A stretch of 64,000 nucleotides of DNA, from NCBI GenBank assembly GCA_963719085.1, contig CAVRAL010000001.1, positions 1,056,001 to 1,120,000 on the forward strand. Direction: 5' to 3'. The notes beneath the pieces were generated by a model. That model did not search any database and was not told the DNA's origin. It saw nothing but the letters and a program-made list of their open reading frames with translations. A program made the translations under genes and the position numbers. Each line of letters begins with the position of its first letter. The stretch's first letter is position 1. Of this stretch, positions 35,954 through 53,873 are shown one piece after another. The DNA is from a candidate division FCPU426 bacterium (GTDB lineage: Bacteria; Oederibacteriota; Muellerivitia; Muellerivitales; Muellerivitaceae).

Positions 35954-35955
35954 GA

Positions 35956-37191: not shown

Positions 37192-37793
37192 GCTTTTCTG
37201 CCCAAGCCGATGATCCGAGGCGGATTCATGACCTTGAAAACCCTGACATCCTTGAGTCCAGCCAACAAAACTTCACGCATGGCCTGCTCCGTAAAGCGGT
37301 AGTAATCCCCGGGAAACCGGTGTTCTCCTAAAGTCAGCGTACCGGCGTTGAAAAACTCGGCGCGGGTTACCTGAGCAAAAAAACGGACCAACATTTTAAT
37401 CAAAGAACGCTTTGGCAAAAAACTATCCAGACCCATTCCGTGAAATCCGGGAACCCCGATGACCACCCACCCGCCGGGCGCCGTCACCCGTACCATTTCC
37501 GAGACCGTTTTCCAGAAAAAAGGGTCATGTTCCAAGGTGGAATTGCAAAGCACCGCCTCAAACCGGTTATCCTCGAACTGGGACATCGAATGGGCGTCCC
37601 CTTGCAGGATTCGCCAGCCTTCCCCCGACGAGGCTTCTTCCAAGTTAAGCCCTATCCTTTCAGGCACTTTCTTGAGGCATTCCATCGCTAGAAGATTATC
37701 TGGTCCCGGAACCGCGCCCACTTCCAGCACGGACCGGCTCAACCCCATGGGTTGAATCAAACGCTCGAAGGCTTGATAAACCTCGGGACTCAC
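37188..37793 (-). CDS. Class I SAM-dependent methyltransferase
   Basis: VLEVGA, FEAVLCNSTLEHD, RVTAPGG, PGDYYRF; GTGA overlaps on both sides. Confidence 0.88.
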   Translation of the reverse strand: MSPEVYQAFERLIQPMGLSRSVLEVGAVPGPDNLLAMECLKKVPERIGLNLEEASSGEGWRILQGDAHSMSQFEDNRFEAVLCNSTLEHDPFFWKTVSEMVRVTAPGGWVVIGVPGFHGMGLDSFLPKRSLIKMLVRFFAQVTRAEFFNAGTLTLGEHRFPGDYYRFTEQAMREVLLAGLKDVRVFKVMNPPRIIGLGRKA

Positions 37794-39958
37794 GCCGAAT
37801 CCTTTCGCGCGAGTCGGCCCGGCCATAGGGATCGTGCCATCGCGATCAAACGCCGTTTAATGAATTTACGCGCCATTCGAAAGTACGAAGCGATAAACCG
37901 AAGACTCGTCATCAGCCGGGGATTCACCGACAGGGCCACGCTCCAAATTTTGAACCAGGGGAATCCGCCTTCTTGGGAATGGGTGAGACTTTGGTTAAAA
38001 AGAAAAGCCAGGGTCTGGGCCTCATAACGGGACAAATGCGGCTCAAGGCGGGACTGAGAGGTCAATCCCCTTTTAATGGCCATTTGGGCAATGGAGCGGA
38101 AAATCCGCGAGTTGGCCGATATCTGGTGGAATGGCACTTTTGAGCTGGCATTGTCCCCATGCTGGACCCAGCAGCCAGCGATCGTGTTCAAAAGAAGAAC
38201 CTCGCCTTCCAGCGACAGTCTTAAAAAAGAATCCATATCCGAGGAACTGATGGGAGCCGTATAGCAGCCGTTCCGGACCGCTTCCCGGCGGTCGAACAAA
38301 ATTCCCAAATGGGTGAAGAAGCCTGTTTGAAAGACAAATTTCAAATAATCGGCCCCGGTCAGACATTTTTCGGATTCGGGGATCGGGGGCAATAAATCCA
38401 CATCCGGTTTCTTTTCATCCGCGAAATGAACCCGATGGCCGGCCTGGGCGAATAAAATTTTCCGGCCCGACTGCCTCCCAATCGCTTCCCGGGCGCGGCT
38501 GATAAAGACCGGGTCGGTCAAATAATCATCCCCGTCCAGCATCAGAGCCCAATCCCCTTGGGCGCATTCGACAATCGCTTTGCGGTAATTGGCCGCCCGG
38601 CCCAAATTCGCCTGGTTGCGGACATAATGAAAACGCGGATCGCTTTTCCACTTTTGACATAAGATCCCGGTTTTATCGGTGGAAGCGTCATCGACCACAA
38701 TGACCTCCAAGGAGCGAAAATTTTGCATCAGGGCGCTGGAAACCGCCCGATCCAAAAAGCCTTCCTGATTATAGGTCGGGATAAGAATGGAGACCTCGGG
38801 GCGGGCTTCCCGGAGAGGCCGCTCCTCTAAAAGTCCGGCCAAACGGGCCGTCTCGCCGGCCCCATCGCTGAGGGGCGGGGATTCTTGGATGTTTCGGCCG
38901 AATTCCTCAATTAATCCTCGATTCAACAAGAGGCGGCTGAGGGCTCCATCGATCGCGGCGGGGTCGTTGGGGACGATGAATCCCGTGCGGCCATTTTCAA
39001 CCAACTCATCCGCGCCGTTCACATCGGTCATCAATACGGGTTTCCCCGCGTGGAGGGCCTCTAAAACCACCATGGAGCTGCCTTCGGATTTTGAAAGCAG
39101 CACAAATAGGTCGCACTTCGCCAACCAGGGATCAACCGCCTCTTGATGTCCCATCAAGAAGAACCGATCTTCCAAACCCAGTGCCTTGATTTCGGTTCGA
39201 AGACGGGGTTCTTCGGGTCCTTCCCCCAGGACGATCCAGCGAAAATCAATCCCTAAATCACGGAGCCGGGCATGCGCCCTTATGTTTTCAAGGATTTGTT
39301 TATCCGGAACCAACCGGGCCACCGTGAGCACCACGAGCAAGTCCCGCGGGACAATAACCGGTGTTTCACCGGCGGAAGAACCCGGCTCGTCCTCGCCGAT
39401 CGGCGGGAACATCACCTGAAAGGGCCGCTCTCTCAAAGGCGGGCAATGGGGAGCGATGGTGGTCCAAAGTTTCCGGGAGACCGTCAGGATAAGATCGGCG
39501 GCCAGGAGGCAGCTTTCCACGGAGCTTCTTTCCCGAAGGGATTGCTTGGAAAAAAAGATCAGCCCTTCATCCACCAGAAAGACAATTTTCCGGGGACTCC
39601 GCGCCAAGCTAAAAGCCACACAAGCGCGCCAGTCGGGAAAAACCGAGGTGCCCAGGACGGCATGATAGTCCCGTTGAAGGGGCTCAATCTTTTCACGCTG
39701 TAAAAAAAGCTCCATCGAGCCCAGCGAGTCCTGTTCGCCTAAGGAGTAAGCCCCCGTGTCCCGATGGCCCATTTGAAGCCGGAAAAGCCCCACTTCGGCC
39801 GGAAGACGGGAAAGCATCCGCTCGTCCGCGGGGCCCGTGACCAGGAAATCAATGTCATAAATGGAAACAAGACGCCGGATGTGGCGAAGCGCCAACAAGG
39901 CGGCTCCGCCCGGAGTGAATTCCCAAGCGATGAACAAGATTCTTTTTTTGGGCGTCAT
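37790..39958 (-). CDS. Bifunctional GT4-GT2 glycosyltransferase
   Basis: GT4: VARLVPDK, SKSEGSSMVVLEA. GT2: VSILIPTYN, VVDDASTD, LDGDD. Confidence 0.92.
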   Translation of the reverse strand: MTPKKRILFIAWEFTPGGAALLALRHIRRLVSIYDIDFLVTGPADERMLSRLPAEVGLFRLQMGHRDTGAYSLGEQDSLGSMELFLQREKIEPLQRDYHAVLGTSVFPDWRACVAFSLARSPRKIVFLVDEGLIFFSKQSLRERSSVESCLLAADLILTVSRKLWTTIAPHCPPLRERPFQVMFPPIGEDEPGSSAGETPVIVPRDLLVVLTVARLVPDKQILENIRAHARLRDLGIDFRWIVLGEGPEEPRLRTEIKALGLEDRFFLMGHQEAVDPWLAKCDLFVLLSKSEGSSMVVLEALHAGKPVLMTDVNGADELVENGRTGFIVPNDPAAIDGALSRLLLNRGLIEEFGRNIQESPPLSDGAGETARLAGLLEERPLREARPEVSILIPTYNQEGFLDRAVSSALMQNFRSLEVIVVDDASTDKTGILCQKWKSDPRFHYVRNQANLGRAANYRKAIVECAQGDWALMLDGDDYLTDPVFISRAREAIGRQSGRKILFAQAGHRVHFADEKKPDVDLLPPIPESEKCLTGADYLKFVFQTGFFTHLGILFDRREAVRNGCYTAPISSSDMDSFLRLSLEGEVLLLNTIAGCWVQHGDNASSKVPFHQISANSRIFRSIAQMAIKRGLTSQSRLEPHLSRYEAQTLAFLFNQSLTHSQEGGFPWFKIWSVALSVNPRLMTSLRFIASYFRMARKFIKRRLIAMARSLWPGRLARKDSA

Positions 39959-40067
39959 GGTGGACAAGATCCGGTCGTTTAATTGATTCCATGACAATCA
40001 TAATTGCGGCCGGGTCGTTTTTGGAAAAAAGCGTCAGGTCTCGTCCGATTCGCGGGTCGCGAAAATA

Positions 40068-41037: not shown

Positions 41038-41757
41038 TTAGGGCATCGTGATGTTATTGGTCAACAGCGTCACTTCGCCGGTCTGTGACAAGGCCCGGCC
41101 CACCAGAACCGCGCCGGCGGCAAAGGTGATGTCCGTATGAGCCATCACGGTTCCCTTGAAGGACGTCGTGGTGTTAAAGGCGCAGCCGCTGCCCACTTGC
41201 CAGAAAACGTTGGAAGCTTGCGCGCTTCCGGTCAAGATGACTTTGCGTCCGGGACCTGTCGTCAGGGTCGAGGCGATCTGGAAAATAAAGACGGCGTCCG
41301 GGTTGCCCAAACCATCCAAAGTCAGGTCTCCCGACGATATCTCAAGCGAACCGGTTGATTTATAGAGCCCTGGATAAAGTGTTTGGCCCCCCAAATTACC
41401 GGAAACCGACGCGGGCGTAACCCTTCCCGCGGCATTGTTGTAAGCCGTGGTCAAATCCCCTTGAGCGATCGACGCGGCGCCGTTGGCCACATCCGAAACC
41501 CCCGAGCAATTGATCACCCACTGCGTTCCCGTCACCGAGCTGCCCGGATATTCGCCCAGTCCCCCGCAAAGAGTGACCGGACCGCTTTCCGTGATGGTGG
41601 TGGAAGCGAGGACCACGTAATTCGCCGCCGCCCCAAGCGTCACCGGCGCCTGAACGGATTGAACCGTCCCCAGGCCCGCGGGACTACCGGAACAACCCGC
41701 GATCAAACCGGCTGACATTAATAATGGCGCGACCAAAAAACCTTTGAATTTTTTCAC
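41038..41757 (-). CDS. Ice-binding protein, DUF3494 family, lipoprotein
   Basis: Lipobox IAGC; LGAAANYVVLAS, AQGDLTTAYN.AAG, LGGQTLYPGLY, LTLDG.GNPDAVFIFQI, AQASNVFWQVG. Confidence 0.93.
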   Translation of the reverse strand: MKKFKGFLVAPLLMSAGLIAGCSGSPAGLGTVQSVQAPVTLGAAANYVVLASTTITESGPVTLCGGLGEYPGSSVTGTQWVINCSGVSDVANGAASIAQGDLTTAYNNAAGRVTPASVSGNLGGQTLYPGLYKSTGSLEISSGDLTLDGLGNPDAVFIFQIASTLTTGPGRKVILTGSAQASNVFWQVGSGCAFNTTTSFKGTVMAHTDITFAAGAVLVGRALSQTGEVTLLTNNITMP

Positions 41758-41804
41758 ACTCACCGTTCCTAAGAATTTTTTATGAAGGTTACAGGGGAGG
41801 TTAA

Positions 41805-41820
41805 AGCAAGGAACGTGCCT
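41805..41820 (-). promoter_or_regulatory. Sigma54 (-24/-12) promoter
   Basis: AGGCACGTTCCTTGCT versus consensus TGGCACG-N4-TTGCW, about 50 nt upstream of the start codon. Confidence 0.7.
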
Positions 41821-42034
41821 CGAAGGTCGGAGGCCAAAGCTTGGATAAATCGAGCAAAAGCGGGGCTTCCCGTGATTTAAAAAAATGGGAACGATCCAAA
41901 GAACCGCGGCGTCAATCAAAACGAGGCTCTCGATTATCGTTTTGATCGCCCCGACAAAAAGTCGAATTAAAACAGGGCCGGGTATGAAAACGGAAGCGGC
42001 GCCCCGCAGGAAGCCGGCGCGGGATCCCCGCGGT

Positions 42035-42547
42035 TTAGGGCAAAGCCTTCCAAACCCGGCCGGGCGCGGCGGGAAGCGAATCCATGTGTTTCAGGAAAAG
42101 AGTGATTTCCCAAATTTGCTCATCGGTGAGGGTTTGGCTGAAACCGGGCATCCCAGTCAAGCGGATCCCGTGTTTGATCTTCCAAAAAGGCGCGCCATCC
42201 GGGTCATCCTCCACACCCTCCCGGGCCAATTGGGGGGCGGGTTGGAAAAGCCCCACGGCAATGTTGGACGCCTTCGCGTCGGAATAACCGTGGCAGACCG
42301 CGCAATTCATGGAATAGAGCCGGATTCCATCAATCAAATGAGAATCCGTGAGGGCCACGGGGTTGGGCCCTTGGGGGGCTTCCCGTTTTAAGGTTGCCCG
42401 AAGGGATGTGTGCGCCGCCCAGCTTTCAAAAAAACCGGGCTTGCCGTCCGCGTTGGCCGGCATGAATCCCAGAATGATAAAAAAATAAACTCCCAAGACA
42501 CCCAGAACCAAAGTCAGCGCGATTCCGATCGCTATTCCCTTGAGCAT
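42035..42547 (-). CDS. Membrane-anchored monoheme cytochrome c
   Basis: N-terminal TM, CAVCHG, GIRLTGMPGF. Confidence 0.92.
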   Translation of the reverse strand: MLKGIAIGIALTLVLGVLGVYFFIILGFMPANADGKPGFFESWAAHTSLRATLKREAPQGPNPVALTDSHLIDGIRLYSMNCAVCHGYSDAKASNIAVGLFQPAPQLAREGVEDDPDGAPFWKIKHGIRLTGMPGFSQTLTDEQIWEITLFLKHMDSLPAAPGRVWKALP

Positions 42548-42645
42548 TGTTTTTTCCTGTTCCGGCCGAACTAAAGCCGATGGTTTGAAGCGTCTTGCTT
42601 GTCCGCCGCGGACAACATAAAGAACAACCAGACCGTTCGTCCAAT

Positions 42646-42673
42646 AAAAAAGCCGTTCCATGTCGGAACGGCC
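42646..42673 (-). terminator. Intrinsic terminator after the autotransporter
   Basis: GGCCGTTCC-GACAT-GGAACGGC-TTTTTT. Confidence 0.8.
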
Positions 42674-42699: not shown

Positions 42700-45600
42700 T
42701 CAGAAGCCGAGATTCACCCCGCCCGAGAAGTTTTGCGCGGCGTAATGGGTCATACCCAACTTATTTTGATAATCCACGTGGACATTCAGGTTTTTGGCGA
42801 ACTCCGCGTTAAGCCCGACCCCCAAGATCGCCGCGTCGGTTCCGGTGGCGGCCCCGCTCACCGTAAAGTCGTTGCCCGATCCCAAGTTGGCCGTCAGGCT
42901 GTCGTCATTTCCTTCGTACAAGTGCTCCCAAGCCGCGCTCAAAGAAGGCGAAAACTTCACTCCACCCGCCGTCCAAACCCGGCTCAATTGAACGCCCAAG
43001 TCGCTGCTCAAATAGCCCTCGCCTTGGGCGGCGTAAGTCAAAGGCGACGCCGAACCCTTTTCGATGAATCCGTTCACATTCACTTGGGTGAATTGGCCCG
43101 AGAGCGACGGGCTGATCGTCAAGCCGTCGGTTTCCCAATCAAATCCCAGGTTGGCCTGGCCTGTCATTTGGGTTCCGGAGGCGCTTCCGTTGGCCGCCCC
43201 GCCGAGGGAGGCGCGCTCCGTGCCGTAGTTGTCGATGCCGGCTTCCACCAAACCATTGAGATGAAGGTCGGCTTGTTTGAACCCGGCGAAAACTCCCAAC
43301 TGGCCGCCCGTCACATTCACCGTTCCGGTCGATTGGCTGGAACCGGATTGAGTGTAGCCCAGCATCAATCCGCCCATGAGATCCTTGCCCAGTCGGGTCT
43401 GAAGGCCCGCCATCGTGCCTCCGGTGGAAAACTGATAACCGGCGCCATTGCCGTCGCCCGTCACGGTCCCGAAATCACCCAACCCGCTCACGAACACGTT
43501 CCAGGCCGGGCCGGCGTTTTCCAACCCCTGCGCCATCCGGGCTTCCTGCCCCGCCGGCAGGTTTCCCGCGAACCTCGGTCCGTTCGTATTCCAAGCCGCC
43601 GAGCGCGAGCCCTCCTCCAATCCCAGCCCGTCCCAGAAGTTTGAAATTTGCCGGCCGATGAGTCCGGCTTCCATCTGTGAATTCGAGAATCCAATCTTAA
43701 AGATCGGCGTCAGGCCGTCCGGCGACAACAAGTTGTAAATTCCCGGCAAAGCGCTGTCCGGATGGGAATTGAGAATATTGAGTAAGCCGGGGTCCAGTGA
43801 ATGGTCGTCCAAGAAATCCAAAACCCCCGCAACCGCTTTCTGGTTGGGCGTCAAGGCCAGATCCGAGAAAGTCGGGGCCACGATGGCCAAGGTCACCGCG
43901 CCGGTTCCGTAAATGACGGAAACAGAGGCGCTTGAAAGCGTGTCAAAAACCGAGGCGAAGGTCGTGCTTCCCAATCCCGCGGAATCCAAAATTTCAAAGG
44001 TCCGGCTTCCCCGGGTCGTGGACACGATTTCCAAGGCGCCGTCCAAGCTGGCCGTGCCGGTCACGTCCACCAAAACCGGCGAGGAATTACTCAGGCCCAA
44101 CCGCAGGGTCGCCCCGGCGGATTGGGTGTAATCGCCGCCCACGCTTAAGGTGAGCGGACCGTTGAGGGCCAAGGTGGCGTTGTTCACCACATCGCCGGAT
44201 CCAAGGGCGGTCGCGTTGCCGGCCGCCAGGGTACCGCCGGAAATCGTGGTGTCGCCGCTGTAGCTGTTGGCGCCGGACAGGGTCAAGGCCCCCGAACCTA
44301 GCTTTTCAAAACTCGCGTTGCCCGCGATCAATCCGCCGAAATTACCCGAGGAGGCTTGAATCTCGGCCGTACCGCCAATGACCGTGACCGAGCCCAATCC
44401 GCTCAAATCACCCAAGGCCAGCGACGCGGTTCCTGTCACCGAGCCCGAACCATCCAAACCTCCCTCGACCGCGAAAGAAGAATCCGAGTCCGCCAGATCT
44501 AAAGAAGTCAAGCTCACCGAGGCGTTGCCGCCCAAACCGTTGCTCACGCCCGTCGCTCCAGCCCCGCCTTCGGCCAAAAGCGAAGCGCCGTGATTCAACA
44601 TCATGTTCCCCGCGTCCAAGGAAGCCTTGCCGCCCTGTCCGCCCACGCTATCCGTGCTGTATCCACCCGCTCCGCCGGAAACCGTCAAACCTGCGGCATC
44701 AATCGAAACCGGACCCGCCACCGTGAGGACCGCGTCGCCGCCGTCCCCGCCGTCACCCGAGCCCGCGTTGTTCGAACCAGCGCCGCCGGCCACGACCATG
44801 CCGGCCGCCGAACCAATGGTTTGTCCCGCTTGGCCGTACGCATTGGACGTCAAAATGAGTTCGCCCAGACTGGCGATCGCGGTGCCGCCCGATGGGGCTA
44901 CGCCGCCCGCGCCATAGAAATCCAAGGCCAAACCGCCGGTCACGGACAGGGAGGCCGAGTCCACCGTCACCCCTCCATCCACCGTCAGGGCGGCCGATCC
45001 GCTCACGACGCCCAATTGATCCCCGTAATATCCCGACCCTACCTGTCCGCCGGAAACCGTGAACTGGGAAGTGTTGAACGCCGAAGTCAGGTAAAGGTTT
45101 TGGCCGATGGAAACAAAGCCATCGCCTCCCGATCCGCCCAGGTAGGAACCGCTGCCGCCGTACCCTCCCGCCGCGTAAAAATGGCTGGAATCAATCGAAA
45201 CCGATCCATCGGTGGCCAAAGCCGCCAAACCGCCGTTGCCGGCGTTATCACTGTTATAGTCCTGCGCGCCCGCGCCCCCGGTCACGGAAAAGCTGGAGGT
45301 CAAAGCGGGCGACGTTGTTACGGGATCCGAAGTTTCCACCAGGCTTCCCAGGGTCACCCAAGCGTTTCCGCCGTTGGATTCGGTCGCTCCGGTATCACCG
45401 AGGCCGTAATACGAGTCCCCTCCTTGCGCGACGAAAATAGATGAATCCATCGACACGGGACCATGGATCGAGACCGCCGCGTCCCCACCGGGGCCGGAGT
45501 CGCCATTGAAATTGTCGTAAGAGCCATATCCACCGTAAACCCCGACGATTGACTGACTGCCAAGGGCCAGCCCCGTCGCCTGGTAGTTGTTGGAGGTGAT

Positions 45601-48600
45601 GACCAGTTGGCCGGCGCTCAGAAAAGCGTTTCCGCCCGCCCCTTCGACTTGGCTGTTCACCCCTCCGCCAGAATTGCCCGAGCCGCCATCCACATAGAGC
45701 CCGCTTGAATCCACGGAAACGGCCCCGCCCACTCCCAGGCTTGCCGCGCCGCCGGAACCGGCCACACCCGGGCTGTAATAGGTAAGATCGGCGCCCGCGC
45801 TTCCCCCGGCGACGGTGAAATTCGAACCATCGTTATTCGCTGTCATCGTAAGGTTCGATCCGATGGTGACGAAGGCGCCCCCGCCGTCGCCGCCGGTCAC
45901 ATTGTCCGTGGAGCCTCCGCTGCCGCCATAAATATTGGCCGCGCTGGAATCCATCGACACGGATCCCGAAACCGTTAAAGCGCCCTGGCCCCCGGTCCCA
46001 GCCGTGTTTAAATAGTGGTTGTCGGATCCCGCCCCGCCCGAAATATTGAGAACTGTTTGAAATCCGTATTGACCGAACAAATCGCTGGTGAGCAAAAGGT
46101 TCGTGGTGGAAACCACGCCGTCCCCCCCGTTATCGGCCGGGACCGTTCCGCCGAAAATGTTTCCGCTCCCGCCCGCCACATTCACCGCGGACGTATCAAT
46201 CGACACGGATCCTGAAACCGTCAAGCGGGCGCCGCCGTTGGTCCCGTCACCCAGGGCGTAGCCAACACCGTCGCCGCCGCCAAACAAATCGAAGGTCGAA
46301 ATATTTTGGCTCGATGTCACGATGAAATTCTGCCCGATGGTCGCCGTGGCGTTCCCGCCGCTCCCCCCCACCGCGTCATTGTTATTACCGCCGTTGCCGG
46401 CGGTAAAATTCGCGTTGGCCGAATCCACCGAAACTCCCGCGCCAGCCAAGAAAAGAACGTCACCGCCGTCACCCGCCGCGCCCAGGCCCGTGTCCGCGCC
46501 GCCGTTGCCGGCCTTTAAGTTAAAGGAAATGTTGTGGCCGTTGCCCGACACCACCAAGCTGTCCGTCCACAAGGTCGCGTCTCCACCCGCGCCCTCGGTT
46601 AGGCCCGCCGAACTCGTACCCGATCCGCCGTTGCCCGCGATCAAGTTGATATTGCCCGAATCGAAAAGTTCACCCGCCAGGGTCACGCCCAAAGAGCCGC
46701 CCGCGCCGCCCAAGGCCGACCCTTGGGTATTTGATCCGCCGTTGCCGGCATTGACGTTCAAACTGGCGGAATTGGTTGAATAGTCCACGATTAAATTGGA
46801 GCCAAGCGAAACCCAGGCGCTCCCGCCGTTCCCCGCCTGGCCGAAGGCGCTGTTGCCGCCTGACCCCGCGGCGACATTGAGATTGGTGGATTCCACCGTC
46901 ACGCCGCCCAGGTCCGACAAGGAAGCCGAGCCGCCCGAACCACCGATGCCGCTCACGCCTTCGCTTCCGCCGGAGCCGGCCAAAATCTCAAAACTCGGAT
47001 TATTGGATCCCGCCACGGTCAAGTTCCCCAAGGACACCGAGGCGCCGCCGCCCGAACCCTCCGTCACACCCGCCGCCGCGTCGCCGGATTGCCCGCCGCC
47101 GCCGACCACGCTGACCGTACCCGAGGCTACCGACACCGCGCCCGCGACGGTCAAGGCCGCCTCACCGCCGCTGCCGCCCACGCCCAAAAGATCGTTGGTG
47201 CCCGCGGTTCCTGCGGCGGCACCGCTCATGTAATTACTGCCGTTAATTTGGCCCGAACCAGGCGTTGCCGACGAACCCGCTTTGCCGCCATTGCCGCCCA
47301 AAACGTTGAACTGGGAGGCATCCGTCAATGTCAAAGCCATCAAGCCGGCGCCCGCATCGCCCCCCACGCCGCCCGAGCCGCTCACGTCATCGCTTCCAGC
47401 CGTCCCGCCCTTGACCAGGCTGCCATCAACATTCTGGGCGTCGGAAATCGCGTTGCCTCCCAGGCCGACAGCGCCGCCTTGTCCGCCTAGGCCGGCCGTA
47501 ACATTGAAAATGGAATTGTCCAGCGAAACCGCGCCCGCGGAAGCCTGAGCGTTGCCGCCGTCGCCGCCCGCGCCGCCCACGTCATCGCTCCCGCCGGCTC
47601 CACCCCGGAGGGTCGCTGCGTCATCATAAGTACTCCCATAGAAACTGAAAGGATTGGAAGTCAGCGTTCCGCCCATCCCCACGCCGGCGCCGGACCCGCC
47701 GGATCCGGCGGCGACCACGAGCGATCCGTTGGAGATCGAGGCAGCGCCCAAGGAGACCGAAGCCGAGCCGCCGTTGCTGCCCGCCGCTCCCGTGACCCCA
47801 TTGGCGCCCGGATTGCCCGTAAGATTGACCATGTAAAGCTCGCTTTGAGACAGGATCGCGGCGCCGCCGACCTGGGCCGGGGCCGAAAGGCCCGCGGCGC
47901 CCGAAACCGTGACGTGGGACGAGTCGATGGAAACCATTCCCGCCACCGTCAAAGCCGCGCTTCCACCCGCCCCCAAAGCTCCAGGCGTGTCCGCGTTCCC
48001 AAAGTTCCCGCTCACCGTGGAGGGATAGGAAGTCGAACCGGTGAACTGGGCCGTGCCCCACAAGCCCGCCCCGCCCCCTTGGCCGCCCGCGCCGCCGGTG
48101 ATATCGAGGGTCGAGCCGTCGTCCAGCGCCAAAGAACTGAAAGACACCGCCGCGCTCCCGCCATTGCCGCCCGCGCCGCCCACGTCACTGTTGCCGCCGT
48201 TGCCCGTCTGGGCCACGCCCTGATCGGAGCCGGCCAAGACCGCGTTGCCGCCGTCACCCGCGTCACCGCCGTTACCGCCCACGCCGGCGGAAATAGAAAG
48301 GGTTGAATCGTCCAGGGACACCGCGCCCGCCAAAACCGTCGCCGACCCGCCATTGCCGCCCGCGCCGCCCATGTCGCCATCACCCCCGATGCCGCCAACC
48401 TCGGTGGTCGCGTAGGAACTGCTCAGGGAATAGGCTGCGCCGCCGGTCCCGACGAAACCGCCGTTACCGCCCGCGCCAGCCGCCACGGTCATTTGGGAGC
48501 CATTCACGAGGGACAAGGATCCGAAGGTCGCCGCCGCGCCGCCGCCGTTACCACCGGCGCCAGCCGTGACACCGCTCTGCGCGTTTCCCGCCGCCAGGCT

Positions 48601-51600
48601 GATGGACTGGGTGTAATAGTCCGTCACCGAATCGCTTCCGATTCCGTTTGAAAGGCCCGCCGCGCCGGAAGCGCCCGCCACGGTCACCGTCGAGGCGTTC
48701 ACGGCGGCCAATCCCGACACCGCCAAGGAAGCGGAGCCGCCATTACCAGCCGCGCCGGGCTCATCATCGGCCCCCCCGATCCCATTGGTGACATTGTCCC
48801 CGCTATAGCGGGTGCCGAAGAAATAGGTTTGTCCGCCCAAGCCCGCCAAACCGCCGGTCCCCGCCGCGCCGCCCGTGACATTCAAGTTGGAATTCCCACT
48901 CAAGGACAAACCGCCCAAAACCAGGCTGGCGTCACCGCCGTTGCCGCCGTCGCCCCCCTGATTACCGTTGCCGCCGTCGCCCGTCACGGAGGTTTCGTTG
49001 CCATAGTCATGGCCAAAACTGACACTTCCCCCCAACCCGGCGTTGCCGCCATCGCCGCCCGCGCCGCCGGCCACTGAAAAGTCCGCGCCGTCCGTCATGG
49101 CCAGTGAGCTTAAAGTGACGCCCGCGTCGCCGCCGTTTCCGCCGTTGCCCCCCATATTGCCGTCGCCGCCTTGGCTGGCGTAGCCATCCCCGGGATTTCC
49201 GCCGTAAGCCCCCCCGAACCAATCGGATCCGCCATTGCCCGCGCCGCCACCATGGCCGCCCAAGCCGCCGGCCACCGTGAAGGTGGAATCATCGATTGAC
49301 ACCGACGCCGCGGTCACCGAAACCGAACCGCCGTCGCCACCCGCGCCGCCGGTATTGTCATCCCCCCCAACGCCGCTGGTGAAGGGACTGCCGTCAAAGT
49401 GGTTGTTTTCCGTGATCGACCCGCCGCTTCCAGCCTCCCCGCCGATGCCGCCCGCGCCGCCGGAAACTTGAAGTTGCGCCTGGTCCACCAAAGTGACCGC
49501 GCCTAAACCAGCCGTCAACGAACCACCCTGGCCGCCCGCCCCACCGTTATTGCCGCTACCGGCGTTTCCGCCAAACACCTGGGAACTATTTCCACCGGTC
49601 GGAAACAAAGCGGTGCCGCCCAAACCAGCCGCGCCGCCATCGCCGGCCGAGCCGCCGGCCAAGGTCAAGGCGGAATCATCGAGCGAAAGAACGCCCGTCT
49701 TAACCGTCACCGCCCCGCCCATTCCGCCCATCCCGCCGGTGTTGTCGTTGCCGCCGTTTCCAGCCGTATATTGGGAAGTCTCCGTGAAATAAAAGCTCTC
49801 GACCAATCCGCCCGAACCCGCGGCACCGCCCGTCCCGCCGCTCCCCCCCGTCACATTCACGCCATAACCACTGGCAACCGTCAAGGAACCCAGGCTCACC
49901 CCCGCCGCGCCACCCTCACCGCCCGACAAACCCAATTGGGAGTCCAAGCCGCTCCCCGACGTCAAGGTCACGCCCGTGGCGTAAGCCGGGTAGGTATTAA
50001 CCATGGTCGAGGCGCCCGCGCCCACGGAGCCCGCCGCCGCGCCGGCCCCGCCGGTAACGCTCACTCCGGTTGAATCCACAGCCACCGTGCCCGCGACCGT
50101 CAAGGCCGCCGCGCCGCCATTACCGCCTGAGCCCCCGAAATTATCCGCGCCTCCCGCGCCGCCCGTCAGCGCGAAGGTGGAATTGTTCAAGGAACTGGTG
50201 ATGGCCAAACTATTAAAGGAAGCCGAGACGTCGCCTCCATTGCCGCCGCCCAAGCCATTGCCCGTTCCGCCCGCGCCGCCCACGCCATTGAAGGAACTGG
50301 AATCCACCGACACCGCCGCAGCCAAGAGGGTGGCGTCCCCGCCGTTACCGCCCGCGCCGCCGGAATTATTGGAACCGTTGGTTCCCAGAATCCCGTTATT
50401 GCTCGAAGGCGAACTCCCGCCAAAGCTGAACCCGCCGCCGGTTCCGGCCAAACCACCGGTACCGCCCGCTCCGCCCATGAGACTCAAGTTTGAGCTATTC
50501 GTGAGGATAAGATCGCCCAGCGAAGCCAAAAGGTTTCCAGCATCGCCGCCCCGGCCCCCGGTATTGCCGTTGCCGCCGTTGCCGGCTGTCACATTATTAT
50601 TATCGACCACATTCCCGTAAAAGCTGACCGAACCGCCCGTTCCCGCCGCGCCGCCGTCGCCGCCCGCGCCGCCGGCCAGGCTTAAATTCGCGCCATTGTC
50701 CAAGTCCGTCGGGCCCAGGGTCACGGCCAAGTCCCCGCCGTTACCACCCGCCCCGCCGCTATTGCCGTTGCCGCCATTGCCGGCCAAGGCGCCCACCTTA
50801 AAGGCCCCAAAATGATCGGCCGTGATCGACCCGCCAACACCCGCCCCGCCGCCCGCGCCGCCGGAGGCACCGGCCCAATTGAGGTTGGTGCCTTCCAAAG
50901 AAACCGCGCCCACCGCGGCTGTGGCCGCGCCGCCATCGCCGCCTAAGCCTCCCAGGTTATCGTCGCCGCCATTACCCGCCACCAGGGTGGTGCCTTGGTT
51001 AGGATAGTAAGGGTCCGAAACGCCGCTGCCGTTGCCGGCCCCACCGCCTAATCCGCCCGAACCCGCCCGGGTAAACAGGGTCCCCGAATTGACCAAGTTC
51101 AAACCGCCCAAGCTGACCGACGCGCTTCCACCCGCGCCGCCTTGGGCGCCTTGGTTATCGCTGAAACCATCCACGCCGGATAAGTTGCCCGAGGAGTCGC
51201 TCACTTGGGAAGACCCCAACGCCAAAGCGCCCGACCCCACGTCACCCGCCCCGCCTCCGGCGCCGCCCACCACGCTGACCGTCCCGGCGTCCACGGTCAT
51301 CACACCCGTCGCGGTCAATCCCGCCGAACCGCCCTGGCCGCCGAGGTTGGCCCGCGCGTTGCCGCCCGCGCCGGCCACAATATTGAGGGCGCTGGAACCC
51401 ACCGAGACCGCCCCCGAAACCGTTAAAGAAGCGTCCCCTCCATTGCCGCCCGCGCCGCCGGTATTACTCACGCCGGCCCCGCCGACCGTCACCGCGTTGT
51501 AATAGAAATTAATGCCGGAGGGTTGAAGCTGCTCCGTGTCGCCGCCCAGCCCCGCGCCGCCGCCGTCGCCGCCGTCGCCGCCAACCAGGTTGAAGGTGGA

Positions 51601-53559
51601 ATTGTCCGCCAAGGTTAAAGGACCCAGGGTCGCCGACGCGCTCCCACCGTTGCCGCCGGTTCCGCCCACGTTGTTGTCCCCGCCCTGGCCTCCCAGCATG
51701 TTGGTGTAGTAATAATAGTAGCCATAGCCAAAAGCCAAGTTTCCGCCATTCCCTGCCCCGCCGCCGGTGCCGCCCGTGCCCGCCGTTACGCCCAAAATGG
51801 AATTGTTAAGGGAAACCGCGCCGGCCGAAAGAGCGGCGTCACCACCCGTTCCCCCGTCGCCGCCCGTATTATCGCTGCCGCCCACCCCCCCGGTGAAAGC
51901 GCCGGGTTCCGAAGAAAGGGACAAACTAACGCCGCCGCCCAAGCCGGCCCCGCCGCCATTGCCTCCCGCGCCCGCCGCCACAACCCAGGTCGCGGCGTTG
52001 GTCAGGGCCAAGGAACCTAAGGTCGCTCCCGCCGAGCCGCCGTTGGCACCAGCCGTTCCCCTGTTGTGATCAAGACCCCCTCCAGCGGTGATCGTCACGT
52101 TGCTGGAAAAAAGATAATGTGAGGTTGAACCTGTCCCCGAATCGCCGCCGGCCGCGCCCGCGCCGCCGGTCACGCTGACCGAACTGTCATCCACCGAAAC
52201 CGCTCCGGTGACGGTTAAGGAACCGTTTCCGCCCTGACCCGACGCTCCGTTGGTGTCGCCGGTTCCATCGGCGCCCACAATGGCCGTATTTGAGAAATTC
52301 GCCAAACTAAAATCGCCGCCGGAGCTGGCCGATCCACCCAAACCCCCGGCGCCGCCGCCCACGGAAAACTGGGAACCGCCGGTCATCGTCAAAGAACCAA
52401 AACTCACACCCGCGTCGCCGCCCTGGCCGCCGTTTCCGCCTTGGTTGTCATTACCGCCATTGCCCGTCAAGGCCAAGTTCAAATAGGAATTATTCGTGTC
52501 GGTCACTTGCGCGAGCCCGCCCACGCCCGCGTCGCCGCCGTTTCCGCCCGCGCCCGCCGCCACTGACAAGGTCGAGGCATCCAGGGAAACCGCTCCCCCG
52601 ACCACCAGAGCGGCGTCACTTCCGTCAGCCGCGTTACCCCCGGTGTTGCCGCTGCCACCCGCGCCGGATATGAGCGTGGAACCTTGAGTGGTCCCATCGA
52701 TGATCACGCTCCCCCCCACGCCCGCCGAACCGCCGTCACCGCCCGCGTCGCCTTGCAATTGCAAACCCGAACCGCCCGTCAGCGTAAGCCCGCCCAAGGT
52801 GGCGCCCGCGGCCCCGCTCAACCCGCCGCTCAATCCTTGGTTGTTATCCGTTCCCGCAAGACCTGTCACCGCGCCGTTCATCAGACCCGTGGCTATCTCC
52901 GAGACCGGAACCGGCCCGGTCGGCTCCGCCGCTCCGCCTTGCCCGCCCTCCACGCTCACTTGGCTGGCGTCTTCCGACACCGCCCCGGACACCGTTAAAT
53001 TCGCCGAACCGCCGACGCCGGTTGAGATTCCAGGTCCGGCTGAAAGTCCAATGGTGGAACTGGAAACCTGGAGGGTGTTGGACGCCAGGGAAACCGAATT
53101 GCCGCTGTTATTCGCTCCCGCCAAAAACAGCGCGCCGTTGTTGTCCACGGTCAAGTCGCTTGAGCCCGCCAGCGAACCGTCGTTGATCTGGATGCCCGAG
53201 ATATCGGCGGAGACCGCGGCGAGGTTGAGGACCTGAAACGCGTTCGCGCCATTCACTTGAACGAGGGCGCCCGTATTTAAAATCGTGACGTTGGCGCTGA
53301 GCGTGGGAAGGTCGGCGGTCAGGGAAATGGTCTGGTTCGAGATGCCCGAGAGATCGATGGTGCCGCCATCCGCGTTGGCGTTGATTTGATTGATGGCGTC
53401 GCCCAAGGATCCGGCGCTGTTATCGCCATTGGCGTTGGAAACAACGATATCCAGCGGCGCCGCCGAGAGGAACGGCGGCGCGCTAAAAAAACCAAGGGCC
53501 AACAGGAAAACGGCGGAGGGAAAAAGAATTCGAGTAAGGGGGGTTGAGGTTTTTTTCAA
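42700..53559 (-). CDS. Giant glycine-rich repeat autotransporter (type Va), 3619 aa
   Basis: Signal peptide; long GGxGG repeat passenger; PATR (KLGSGALTLSGANSYSGDTTISGGTL); C-terminal beta-barrel ending GGVNLGF. Confidence 0.93.
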   Translation of the reverse strand: MKKTSTPLTRILFPSAVFLLALGFFSAPPFLSAAPLDIVVSNANGDNSAGSLGDAINQINANADGGTIDLSGISNQTISLTADLPTLSANVTILNTGALVQVNGANAFQVLNLAAVSADISGIQINDGSLAGSSDLTVDNNGALFLAGANNSGNSVSLASNTLQVSSSTIGLSAGPGISTGVGGSANLTVSGAVSEDASQVSVEGGQGGAAEPTGPVPVSEIATGLMNGAVTGLAGTDNNQGLSGGLSGAAGATLGGLTLTGGSGLQLQGDAGGDGGSAGVGGSVIIDGTTQGSTLISGAGGSGNTGGNAADGSDAALVVGGAVSLDASTLSVAAGAGGNGGDAGVGGLAQVTDTNNSYLNLALTGNGGNDNQGGNGGQGGDAGVSFGSLTMTGGSQFSVGGGAGGLGGSASSGGDFSLANFSNTAIVGADGTGDTNGASGQGGNGSLTVTGAVSVDDSSVSVTGGAGAAGGDSGTGSTSHYLFSSNVTITAGGGLDHNRGTAGANGGSAGATLGSLALTNAATWVVAAGAGGNGGGAGLGGGVSLSLSSEPGAFTGGVGGSDNTGGDGGTGGDAALSAGAVSLNNSILGVTAGTGGTGGGAGNGGNLAFGYGYYYYYTNMLGGQGGDNNVGGTGGNGGSASATLGPLTLADNSTFNLVGGDGGDGGGAGLGGDTEQLQPSGINFYYNAVTVGGAGVSNTGGAGGNGGDASLTVSGAVSVGSSALNIVAGAGGNARANLGGQGGSAGLTATGVMTVDAGTVSVVGGAGGGAGDVGSGALALGSSQVSDSSGNLSGVDGFSDNQGAQGGAGGSASVSLGGLNLVNSGTLFTRAGSGGLGGGAGNGSGVSDPYYPNQGTTLVAGNGGDDNLGGLGGDGGAATAAVGAVSLEGTNLNWAGASGGAGGGAGVGGSITADHFGAFKVGALAGNGGNGNSGGAGGNGGDLAVTLGPTDLDNGANLSLAGGAGGDGGAAGTGGSVSFYGNVVDNNNVTAGNGGNGNTGGRGGDAGNLLASLGDLILTNSSNLSLMGGAGGTGGLAGTGGGFSFGGSSPSSNNGILGTNGSNNSGGAGGNGGDATLLAAAVSVDSSSFNGVGGAGGTGNGLGGGNGGDVSASFNSLAITSSLNNSTFALTGGAGGADNFGGSGGNGGAAALTVAGTVAVDSTGVSVTGGAGAAAGSVGAGASTMVNTYPAYATGVTLTSGSGLDSQLGLSGGEGGAAGVSLGSLTVASGYGVNVTGGSGGTGGAAGSGGLVESFYFTETSQYTAGNGGNDNTGGMGGMGGAVTVKTGVLSLDDSALTLAGGSAGDGGAAGLGGTALFPTGGNSSQVFGGNAGSGNNGGAGGQGGSLTAGLGAVTLVDQAQLQVSGGAGGIGGEAGSGGSITENNHFDGSPFTSGVGGDDNTGGAGGDGGSVSVTAASVSIDDSTFTVAGGLGGHGGGAGNGGSDWFGGAYGGNPGDGYASQGGDGNMGGNGGNGGDAGVTLSSLAMTDGADFSVAGGAGGDGGNAGLGGSVSFGHDYGNETSVTGDGGNGNQGGDGGNGGDASLVLGGLSLSGNSNLNVTGGAAGTGGLAGLGGQTYFFGTRYSGDNVTNGIGGADDEPGAAGNGGSASLAVSGLAAVNASTVTVAGASGAAGLSNGIGSDSVTDYYTQSISLAAGNAQSGVTAGAGGNGGGAAATFGSLSLVNGSQMTVAAGAGGNGGFVGTGGAAYSLSSSYATTEVGGIGGDGDMGGAGGNGGSATVLAGAVSLDDSTLSISAGVGGNGGDAGDGGNAVLAGSDQGVAQTGNGGNSDVGGAGGNGGSAAVSFSSLALDDGSTLDITGGAGGQGGGAGLWGTAQFTGSTSYPSTVSGNFGNADTPGALGAGGSAALTVAGMVSIDSSHVTVSGAAGLSAPAQVGGAAILSQSELYMVNLTGNPGANGVTGAAGSNGGSASVSLGAASISNGSLVVAAGSGGSGAGVGMGGTLTSNPFSFYGSTYDDAATLRGGAGGSDDVGGAGGDGGNAQASAGAVSLDNSIFNVTAGLGGQGGAVGLGGNAISDAQNVDGSLVKGGTAGSDDVSGSGGVGGDAGAGLMALTLTDASQFNVLGGNGGKAGSSATPGSGQINGSNYMSGAAAGTAGTNDLLGVGGSGGEAALTVAGAVSVASGTVSVVGGGGQSGDAAAGVTEGSGGGASVSLGNLTVAGSNNPSFEILAGSGGSEGVSGIGGSGGSASLSDLGGVTVESTNLNVAAGSGGNSAFGQAGNGGSAWVSLGSNLIVDYSTNSASLNVNAGNGGSNTQGSALGGAGGSLGVTLAGELFDSGNINLIAGNGGSGTSSAGLTEGAGGDATLWTDSLVVSGNGHNISFNLKAGNGGADTGLGAAGDGGDVLFLAGAGVSVDSANANFTAGNGGNNNDAVGGSGGNATATIGQNFIVTSSQNISTFDLFGGGDGVGYALGDGTNGGARLTVSGSVSIDTSAVNVAGGSGNIFGGTVPADNGGDGVVSTTNLLLTSDLFGQYGFQTVLNISGGAGSDNHYLNTAGTGGQGALTVSGSVSMDSSAANIYGGSGGSTDNVTGGDGGGAFVTIGSNLTMTANNDGSNFTVAGGSAGADLTYYSPGVAGSGGAASLGVGGAVSVDSSGLYVDGGSGNSGGGVNSQVEGAGGNAFLSAGQLVITSNNYQATGLALGSQSIVGVYGGYGSYDNFNGDSGPGGDAAVSIHGPVSMDSSIFVAQGGDSYYGLGDTGATESNGGNAWVTLGSLVETSDPVTTSPALTSSFSVTGGAGAQDYNSDNAGNGGLAALATDGSVSIDSSHFYAAGGYGGSGSYLGGSGGDGFVSIGQNLYLTSAFNTSQFTVSGGQVGSGYYGDQLGVVSGSAALTVDGGVTVDSASLSVTGGLALDFYGAGGVAPSGGTAIASLGELILTSNAYGQAGQTIGSAAGMVVAGGAGSNNAGSGDGGDGGDAVLTVAGPVSIDAAGLTVSGGAGGYSTDSVGGQGGKASLDAGNMMLNHGASLLAEGGAGATGVSNGLGGNASVSLTSLDLADSDSSFAVEGGLDGSGSVTGTASLALGDLSGLGSVTVIGGTAEIQASSGNFGGLIAGNASFEKLGSGALTLSGANSYSGDTTISGGTLAAGNATALGSGDVVNNATLALNGPLTLSVGGDYTQSAGATLRLGLSNSSPVLVDVTGTASLDGALEIVSTTRGSRTFEILDSAGLGSTTFASVFDTLSSASVSVIYGTGAVTLAIVAPTFSDLALTPNQKAVAGVLDFLDDHSLDPGLLNILNSHPDSALPGIYNLLSPDGLTPIFKIGFSNSQMEAGLIGRQISNFWDGLGLEEGSRSAAWNTNGPRFAGNLPAGQEARMAQGLENAGPAWNVFVSGLGDFGTVTGDGNGAGYQFSTGGTMAGLQTRLGKDLMGGLMLGYTQSGSSQSTGTVNVTGGQLGVFAGFKQADLHLNGLVEAGIDNYGTERASLGGAANGSASGTQMTGQANLGFDWETDGLTISPSLSGQFTQVNVNGFIEKGSASPLTYAAQGEGYLSSDLGVQLSRVWTAGGVKFSPSLSAAWEHLYEGNDDSLTANLGSGNDFTVSGAATGTDAAILGVGLNAEFAKNLNVHVDYQNKLGMTHYAAQNFSGGVNLGF

Positions 53560-53649
53560 AAAGGAAACGCCCTCCGAAAATGGAACCGATAGAGAGTGTG
53601 GGAAGAGCGTTGAAAGACCGCCGTCAAGCGGCCCCCAAATTATGGAATG

Positions 53650-53701
53650 TGAAAAGCCAAAGAAAAGACGAATGAAAAGCAGTATAAAGACCGTGAAAAG
53701 C
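53650..53701. repeat. Phased TGAAAAGC direct repeats upstream of the autotransporter
   Basis: TGAAAAGC at 53650, 53673 and 53694; weaker copies at 53661 and 53683. Confidence 0.6.
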
Positions 53702-53817
53702 AGATCAAGAATTTAATGGGCAAATCCGGGTAAATTATTTCCCTCTTCCCCGAACCGAGGTACCTTTTTTTGTTGGAACTTTGTCCGGCGAAACTAATCC
53801 GCTCGACAAAAAATACC

Positions 53818-53852
53818 AAAAAAAAGGCCGGCGTGATAACCACGCCGGCCTT
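53818..53852 (-). terminator. Intrinsic terminator after rpoD
   Basis: AAGGCCGGCGTG-GTTAT-CACGCCGGCC-TTTTTTTT. Confidence 0.85.
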
Positions 53853-53873
53853 CAACCCCAATTTTAATTTTTC

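Follow-up and report, generated by a model that had tools for sequence, protein, structure and literature searches.

The 64,000-nucleotide stretch of DNA analysed here (the window, whose positions are counted from its first letter) comes from contig CAVRAL010000001.1 of an uncultured soil bacterium of candidate division FCPU426, and its minus strand carries, at 42700..53559, one intact open reading frame (ORF) of 3619 codons with a TTG start. Judged from its sequence, the encoded protein is a classical type Va autotransporter. We think it reasonably probable that the passenger of this autotransporter is a solenoid carrying a fin of polyglycine-II (PGII) helices, and that the whole most likely acts as a loop-presenting adhesin.

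Secretion type and repeat units

The C-terminal residues 3355-3619 (42700..43497, minus strand) make up an autotransporter beta-barrel translocator, which ends in ...GGVNLGF followed by the stop codon (42700-42702). PF03797 matches this region over its full profile (1-255 of 255) with an E-value of 3.6e-43 and 148.6 bits against a cut-off of 26, and the envelope of the match (42766-43497) lies in frame at the end of the ORF. The adjoining membrane-proximal stalk and linker (residues 3019-3354, 43498..44505, minus strand) contain one PATR, or autotransporter-associated beta-strand, repeat at 44224-44307 (PF12951, E 1e-11; TIGR02601, E 2.4e-11). We assign the protein to type Va because the barrel and the PATR repeat are found in the same polypeptide. 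Both were recovered when the last 666 residues were scanned alone, whereas Pfam and NCBIfam scans of the whole protein (3619 residues) returned no family at all. This contrast means that whole-protein family scans are uninformative for this protein, and it indicates that giant Gly-rich proteins can seem to lack domains in routine annotation. When the passenger was scanned in separate pieces, no Pfam or NCBIfam family covered the repeat, with none from Pfam at E ≤ 1, and the N-terminal pieces of 157-253 residues gave no match in either library and no PE domain. The protein contains 925 Gly among its 3619 residues (25.6%), no Cys, and 241 Asp and Glu compared with 35 Lys and Arg, in agreement with the acidic, Cys-free passenger described in the initial annotation of this DNA.

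Two kinds of repeat unit fill the passenger between an N-terminal cap region and the stalk. A hidden Markov model (HMM) of the unit, started with six units and refined iteratively against the protein, covers residues 192-2137 with adjoining units, and together with a curated alignment it delimits 29 long units of 63-76 residues and one half unit (residues 192-2139, 47143..52986, minus strand), the half-length unit breaking the array at residues 716-751. Each long unit is ordered as a beta segment (GxVSLxDxSxLxV), a GGx 'out' run of ~15 residues, a tip loop and a 'back' run of 17-18 residues, and the second beta segment of the unit continues into the following one. The consensus of the first half reads G-x-[VL]-[ST]-[LV]-x-D-x-S-x-[LVF]-x-V-x-GGAGGxGGxAGxGG up to the tip loop, and that of the second half, after the loop, reads GxGGxxNxGGxGGxGGxA-x-[LV]-[TS]-[LV]. 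The tip loops are 13-24 residues long and consist of 12% Phe, Tyr and Trp, compared with 0-3% elsewhere.

The short units lie closer to the membrane. Residues 2140-3018 (44506..47142, minus strand) hold ~22 of them, each of ~40 residues, as delimited with the unit HMM, the alignment and a structural model. In the model a short unit appears as a three-stranded solenoid coil with a short Gly hairpin (GGxGG, a turn of 3-10 residues, GGxGG), and we read 14 Gly hairpins in the 569 modelled residues of this zone, or ~40.6 residues per unit. The short units contain ten occurrences of GG.GG and none of GG.GG.GG.

This plan of beta-strands, an outgoing GGx run, a variable loop and a returning GGx run had been put forward in the initial annotation, and the unit HMM and the 29-unit alignment bear it out; the two zones, first placed at about 47150-53000 and 44400-47150, have shifted by ~100 nt at most. 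Some of its details needed revision. The alternation of GAVSxDxSxxxV and LGSLxL segments is frequent in the curated alignment but not strict. A hairpin of the GGAGGxGG type, claimed for all units, is present in the long units but not in the short ones, which carry only short GGxGG runs.

The motif GG.GG occurs 86 times, whereas 200 shuffled versions averaged 18.2 and never had more than 31, and the observed/expected ratio of Gly-Gly pairs in the long units is 1.61 at lag 3, 1.41 at lag 6 and 1.15 at lag 9. From the consensus and this enrichment, the protein contains triplet runs with a fixed Gly phase, as do the Gly-rich polyproline-II (PPII) or PGII bundles, a class that we took to comprise 7JJV, 2PNE, 6F45, 7LS0, 1LNZ and 5L9W. 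At the DNA level the copies have diverged, as had been noticed at the outset: Tandem Repeats Finder reported only an 18-bp array of 2.1 copies and a 9-bp array of 2.8 copies with no long period, and six-unit tiles within the protein are 35-39% identical to each other.

Predicted structures of the long and short units

We modelled residues 1353-1744, which contain six long units, with AlphaFold2; the input alignment had 13 rows, each a six-unit tile that did not overlap the others, of which five were taken from this protein and eight from ORFs of five relatives. The model has a mean predicted local distance difference test score (pLDDT) of 87.5 and a predicted template modelling score (pTM) of 0.83, with all five models at a pLDDT of 86.1-87.5; the Gly runs stand at ~84-98 and the tip loops at 60-77. 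DSSP assigns two strands (~11 and 5 residues) to each long unit and puts the Gly runs in neither the strand nor the helix class, and the single bridge residues that it reports within these runs fall on the conserved Ala and Asn.

A search of the PDB with Foldseek returned 7jjv_A, a springtail antifreeze protein (AFP), as the top row for the long-unit model (E 1.1e-3, probability 0.99), with all beta-helix rows at TM scores of 0.11 or less; against viral models it found nothing meaningful (TM ≤ 0.15, probability ≤ 0.08). VIA-align, a structure search independent of Foldseek, gave among the matches listed an alignment of 125/126 residues of the springtail AFP 7jjv_B with the model range 12-290 (Z 12.7, 2.1 Å), of 124/125 residues of the springtail AFP 7jjv_A with the range 115-391 in a second register (Z 11.5, 1.9 Å), and of 81/81 residues of the snow flea AFP 2pne with the range 13-192 (Z 6.5, 1.5 Å). 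By our count, the range 12-290 spans five 'out' runs and four 'back' runs exactly, the same number as the nine helices of 7JJV, and the range 13-192 spans six runs, as in the six-helix 2PNE. The second register of 7jjv_A fits this picture because a continuous periodic sheet should permit a register shift.

On the rest of each unit, the same search aligned beta-helices of autotransporters and of two-partner-secretion proteins over 117-151 residues, or ~20-25 per unit, with Z-scores of 9.6 for Hbp, 9.2 for VacA, 8.6 for pertactin, 8.2 for TibA, 7.9 for HMW1, 7.8 for EtpA, 7.7 for Vag8 and 7.6 for FHA. The fit of the AFPs on the Gly runs and of the beta-helices on the remainder thus points to one solenoid coil per long unit with two PGII arms. 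The superpositions and the DSSP class support aligned PPII helices packed in layers in the model, and the long units would then probably consist of a beta-solenoid spine and a two-layer PGII fin. A spine of this kind with a stacked PGII fin had been anticipated in the initial annotation, which proposed AlphaFold on windows of a few units followed by Foldseek; the confident model, its best Foldseek row and the fits to 7JJV, 2PNE and the beta-helices support that idea, as a prediction, for the long units.

With a quarter of its residues being Gly, the passenger could also be viewed as a loosely structured, low-complexity surface polymer in which the Gly runs are flexible, disordered spacers, a concern that the initial annotation had itself raised. 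The whole-protein family scans are blank, as they are for many low-complexity proteins, and the tip loops are of low confidence in the model. We aligned 73 full-length long units from seven ORFs to the unit profile and mapped their insertions and deletions. Over these units, inserted residues and deletions number 4 and 3 in the 'out' Gly run (profile positions 15-30) and 2 and 1 in the 'back' Gly run (44-62), while they reach 67 and 68 in the tip loop (31-38); the other indels fall at one beta-turn position and at the unit borders. Gly runs of essentially invariant length in 73 units from seven diverged proteins, next to a loop that varies, speak against disorder independently of any model, and runs locked in register beside a freely varying loop argue for a stacked structure rather than for disordered spacers. 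The strict GGx phase and the high pLDDT of the Gly runs in five concordant models also count against disorder, which we regard as very unlikely.

The acidity of the passenger suits another reading, in which the runs rich in Gly, Asp and Asn form turns that bind Ca2+ in a broad beta-roll or beta-solenoid, like those of RTX proteins and the Marinomonas antifreeze domain; they would fold only on meeting extracellular Ca2+, and the PGII fin would be an artefact of an ion-blind predictor. An Asn/Asp column is kept in the 'back' run (N18 D8 of 29) and endings of the form GGxGG[DS]A recur; the RTX beta-roll of adenylate cyclase toxin (7usl_C) aligns with part of the long-unit model (Z 8.8, 2.9 Å, 111 residues), and the top match of the short units, 3p4g, is a Ca2+-dependent beta-helix. 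The RTX nonapeptide motif, however, is GGxGxDxUx, and Gly in the long units recurs with a period of 3 and not 9 (1.61 against 1.15). The passenger pieces, five in one scan and two in an earlier one, gave no match at E ≤ 1 to an RTX family (HemolysinCabind, which we take to be that family) or to anything else in Pfam, and the antifreeze PGII bundle fits better than the beta-roll (Z 12.7 against 8.8), end to end and in two registers. We consider the Ca2+ reading unlikely.

The short units were modelled in the same way over residues 2450-3018 (569 residues, 14 short units) from a 9-row alignment, giving a pLDDT of 87.6 and a pTM of 0.90. The top match of this model is 3p4g (Z 22.0, 2.7 Å, 269/301 residues, 16% identity), followed by Vag8 (Z 18.8), TibA (16.7), EtpA (15.1), VacA p55 (14.6) and Ag43b (13.2). 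The 269 aligned among the 569 modelled residues amount to ~19 per unit of ~40, and the remaining ~20, the short Gly hairpin, would project from each coil. The model suggests that the short units are an ordinary beta-solenoid with short Gly hairpins, and we limit the PGII claim to the long units. A spine and a fin had first been assigned to this proximal zone as well; the beta-solenoid is retained there, but no PGII match stands out.

Several observations weigh against a PGII fin or against the role that we derive from it. The structural support is prediction only, and the alignments behind the models are shallow (13 and 9 rows) and partly built from the protein's own repeats. AlphaFold2 may, through its training data, be biased toward a PGII bundle for any GGx-rich sequence, and the PGII geometry rests on the superpositions and on a DSSP class of neither strand nor helix, not on angles. 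Foldseek found no match in the PDB at E ≤ 0.001 for either model, and the partial alignment with the RTX beta-roll is a further point of this kind. For the short units, 7jjv has a Foldseek probability of 0.14-0.30 and is absent from the best 50 VIA-align rows, and the PPII AFPs come up only as weak Foldseek rows. The gene neighbourhoods of the seven relatives described below have nothing in common, so they offer no hint of function.

Proposed architecture and comparison with known systems

In the architecture that we propose, the protein would be exported by Sec, and its C-terminal barrel, presumably 12-stranded as in the rest of its family, would enter the outer membrane. The 3300-residue passenger, unfolded, Cys-free and acidic, would be threaded C-terminus first; the stalk and the short units would fold before the rest and then template it. 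The folded passenger would be a single continuous solenoid of ~52 coils, each a three-strand beta arc of ~20-25 residues of the usual autotransporter kind, and from each coil a Gly-rich hairpin would emerge at one and the same corner. For the 29 distal coils, the hairpin arms, (GGx)n of ~15 and 17-18 residues, are predicted to be PGII helices. The 'out' arms would stack in one layer and the 'back' arms in a second, antiparallel layer, and the outcome would be a two-layer PGII sheet of ~58 helices, that is, the springtail AFP architecture made about six-fold longer and fused to a beta-helix. Given a PGII rise of 3.1 Å per residue, a value given in bioRxiv 10.1101/2023.11.25.568672, the fin would be ~14 nm long (29 x ~4.8 Å) and ~5 nm wide (15-18 residues x 3.1 Å).

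The outer edge of such a fin would bear the tip loops of 13-24 residues, which would be its sole hypervariable part and are rich in Tyr, Phe and Trp as well as in Ser, Thr and Asn. A rigid, acidic PGII blade could then serve as a platform that shows a comb of ~29 variable loops to a ligand. Granted the architecture, we propose this adhesin role tentatively, as something close to an even call. A precedent is provided by phage gp38, in which, according to bioRxiv 10.1101/2023.11.25.568672, a PGII bundle flanked by beta-solenoid layers is a stable platform for variable receptor-binding loops.

The superposition of the fin on the springtail and snow flea AFPs (Z 12.7 and 6.5; 2.1 and 1.5 Å) raises the alternative that the flat two-layer PGII sheet itself does the work by binding ice, or some other surface that is crystalline or ordered, in the manner of springtail AFPs; the protein would then be a bacterial, surface-anchored equivalent of these AFPs and of the ice-binding adhesin of Marinomonas. 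The short units match best to 3p4g, a beta-helical antifreeze domain (Z 22.0), and a gene of the Ice_binding family (DUF3494, E 3.9e-54, 293 residues, 41038-41919, minus strand) lies two genes downstream on the same strand. In the springtail fold, antifreeze activity scales with the area of the ice-binding site, as stated in the abstract of bioRxiv 10.1101/2022.09.07.506985. Those x positions of the GGx triplets that would face outward are, however, mixed and often acidic or amide, with no evident regular array of Ala or Thr. Column 20 has A5 D5 T5 N4 L3, column 74 has N13 D5 Q3 and column 77 has S10 D9 A5; columns 17 (A16 of 29), 71 (A14) and 78 (A23) are rich in Ala, and the neighbouring x columns are mixed and acidic. 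A common fold is no proof of a common function, and the match to 3p4g has only 16% identity. An Ice_binding neighbour is found in none of the seven relatives' loci, and the DUF3494 family is common in this bacterial family whether or not a genome has the repeat: PF11999 occurs in 16 of the 30 further genomes, and a cross-check placed it in only 4 of the 9 that bear the repeat.

On these grounds (none of seven loci and no clear co-occurrence across the family) we rejected a link to ice through gene context, and we regard ice or crystal binding by the sheet as quite unlikely. We give the same low probability to its fuller form, in which the fin of ~14 x 5 nm, having converged with the springtail AFPs, docks on ice or an ordered crystalline surface and represents a new class of hybrid-solenoid fold. 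Were this true, the sides of each coil would be part beta strands and part PGII helices, and the sheet would be larger than any predicted PGII assembly mentioned in the papers cited here. As a separate observation, some relatives carry many members of the Ice_binding family: as many as 15 matches occur in a single genome, several of them in tandem.

Read as a loop-presenting autotransporter, the protein resembles the type Va adhesins (Ag43, TibA, AIDA-I type, pertactin, Vag8, Hbp) in combining within a single polypeptide a putative leader, a repetitive, Cys-free and acidic passenger, a PATR repeat and a PF03797 barrel. Its predicted coils align with autotransporter passengers (Vag8, Z 18.8; TibA, 16.7; Ag43b, 13.2; Hbp, 11.8; pertactin, 8.6; also Pet). 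It differs from these adhesins in the size of its coils, ~40 or ~65 residues compared with ~19-25, which is due to a Gly hairpin inserted at one corner, in the 29 distal hairpins that are predicted to form a continuous PGII sheet, and in a passenger that belongs to no family in Pfam or NCBIfam.

The likeness to the springtail and snow flea AFPs (7JJV, 2PNE, 3BOG) lies in successive Gly-rich helices that alternate between two layers, and the 9- and 6-helix AFPs superpose whole on the model at 1.5-2.1 Å with an identity of 37-40% that is driven by Gly. In springtail AFPs the helices are parallel within a face and one face is antiparallel to the other (PMC12227593). Unlike these proteins, to which neither phmmer nor a profile search detects sequence homology, the autotransporter is bacterial, membrane-anchored and giant, with ~58 predicted helices compared with 6-13. 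A beta-solenoid coil would replace the turn at one end of the helices and a variable loop of 13-24 residues the turn at the other, and the residues that would face outward are irregular and acidic.

By published description, gp38 of phage S16 and the T-even phages (6F45) is also similar, being a Gly-rich PGII bundle with beta-solenoid layers that is a platform for hypervariable loops. It belongs to phages and is no autotransporter, and its ten helices form a compact three-dimensional sandwich, in contrast to the open-ended periodic sheet predicted here. The likeness is one of description only, and 6F45 is absent from the best 50 VIA-align rows of either long-unit search. The PE_PGRS proteins, likewise compared by description, share long GGx arrays on a cell-surface protein and a structure known from prediction; AlphaFold predicts PGII sandwiches of up to 54 helices for them (PMC9436101). 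The present protein differs in having no PE domain or type VII context, in export through a type V barrel, and in PGII arms that would be tied pairwise to a beta-solenoid coil.

The Marinomonas adhesin is a giant, repetitive protein exported by type I secretion. Region IV of this ice-binding adhesin of Marinomonas primoryensis (3P4G) and the RTX proteins have in common with our protein Gly-rich turns and an acidic sequence, but the Ca2+-binding 19-residue repeat of the former and the RTX nonapeptide are absent here.

PGII bundles are rare. A 2025 paper (PMC12227593) enumerates six natural proteins whose bundles, of 6-14 helices, have been solved: the two springtail AFPs, gp38 of phage S16, ALK, acetophenone carboxylase and Obg. 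The large PE_PGRS sandwiches are predicted only. In the open-access full text that we searched, we did not find polyglycine II together with autotransporter, and the combination of polyproline II, autotransporter and glycine-rich led, judged by title and abstract, only to work on disordered proteins or low-complexity regions. Type V secretion and PGII bundles are thus each known, and we found no description of their fusion, with one PGII pair per solenoid coil, open-ended, in an autotransporter. The initial annotation had called the architecture unrecognised, and the family libraries and this literature search agree with it.

If the model holds, the protein would provide the first example of a PGII assembly within an autotransporter, a PGII sheet of ~58 helices that is periodic and open-ended, and a hybrid beta/PGII solenoid, the last being of interest for protein design and for the study of how Gly-rich chains fold vectorially during secretion. 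It would also offer a soluble, Cys-free bacterial system for an experimental trial of the PGII-sandwich idea. A type of passenger that is restricted to one bacterial family can evade every current domain library.

Relatives, gene boundaries and neighbouring genes

Using a six-unit profile at E ≤ 1e-10, we detected the repeat in 9 of the 30 further genomes from this bacterial family and in none of 68 genomes from 22 other families of the phylum. Queries with the single protein recovered it in 8 of 40 relatives at 1e-3 and in 5 of 30 at 1e-8. An exhaustive HMMER search with residues 322-715 against 1.84 billion representative proteins gave five matches at E ≤ 1e-3, all of them fragments, and a word-indexed search among longer proteins gave two. 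By sequence, phmmer found no PDB chain at E ≤ 1, and the profile matched only one spurious NADH dehydrogenase chain (E 0.02). The ESM Atlas returned only unnamed clusters with scores of 0.90 or less and low recognition, which we did not use as evidence. No relative of the N-terminal 330 residues was found among the genome contigs, and the rest of the genome lacks a paralogue, all seven repeat matches being located inside this ORF.

The seven giant relatives, of 1555-4669 residues, contain both unit types in differing orders. In two of them (L020, 2912 residues; L021, 2909 residues) the order is the reverse of that described above, with the short units N-terminal and the long units adjoining the stalk. 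Because the order differs among relatives, the long and short units seem to serve as exchangeable modules of a single solenoid. An autotransporter-type tail, ...GG[VI][NH]xx[FL], closes six of the seven; the remaining one (L023, 2046 residues) ends otherwise. The largest (L019:1905-15911, minus strand, 4669 residues, genome G012) contains near-identical super-repeats of ~419 residues (residues 315-733, 734-1152 and 1153 onward), which, judged from sequence, seem to stem from recent duplication within the gene, in contrast to the window with its diverged copies, and the same genome encodes a second giant, L018, of 2513 residues. The locus L022:4556-11819 (plus strand, genome G010) is divided into two overlapping ORFs of 1015 and 1555 residues with runs of X at the junction, and the split is probably an assembly gap or masked stretch within the repeat rather than a sign of two genes.

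The N-terminus of the ORF (residues 1 to ~34, 53458..53559, minus strand) looks like a Sec leader. Read by eye from the translation, it has KK, an uncharged stretch TSTPLTRILFPS, a hydrophobic core and ...LSAAP, and a metagenomic relative, P0005, has an equal layout. The TTG start is backed by P0005, which begins at the equivalent point with M-K-R and a comparable hydrophobic leader. Ahead of the start codon (53557-53559), a Shine-Dalgarno-like GGAGGG (53570-53575) with a 10-nt spacer can be read from the sequence (53557..53575 as a whole, minus strand). A consensus scan picked out a promoter-like TTGATC-16-TATACT at 53681..53708 on the minus strand (9/12 match), with four such sites seen compared with 2.3 expected by chance; it is downstream of a strong terminator-like hairpin (53823-53853) that trails a sigma-70 gene. 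For this neighbouring sigma factor, the closest genomes are metagenome-assembled and show 74-80% identity. Between the signal-peptide-like region and the first long unit, the N-terminal cap region (residues 35-191, 52987..53457, minus strand) is poor in Gly (11% in the first 200 residues) and is kept in P0005.

Sequence words of the gene turned up in the soil metagenome runs of a single study, and no RNA data set was listed as containing them. Short contigs of soil metagenomes, also from one study, cover the gene piecewise, with no differences listed and no contig spanning it, and the joints listed in those contigs have sides of 20-22 nt at repeats and resemble artefacts.

On the other side of the gene, 38 nt past the autotransporter stop codon, a c-type cytochrome of 208 residues begins (42035-42661, minus strand; PF13442, PF00034). 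No intrinsic-terminator-like site is listed on the minus strand between the two genes, and the cytochrome may be co-transcribed with the autotransporter. Dedicated transferases glycosylate some autotransporter passengers. A glycosyltransferase cluster at 34610-39997 (minus strand) comprises a GT1 protein, a GT1+GT2 fusion of 735 residues, a methyltransferase and a 411-residue ORF with no family, and nothing seen here links it to the passenger. At 28162-30720, also on the minus strand, lies a gene for an 852-residue protein made up almost entirely of TPR repeats.

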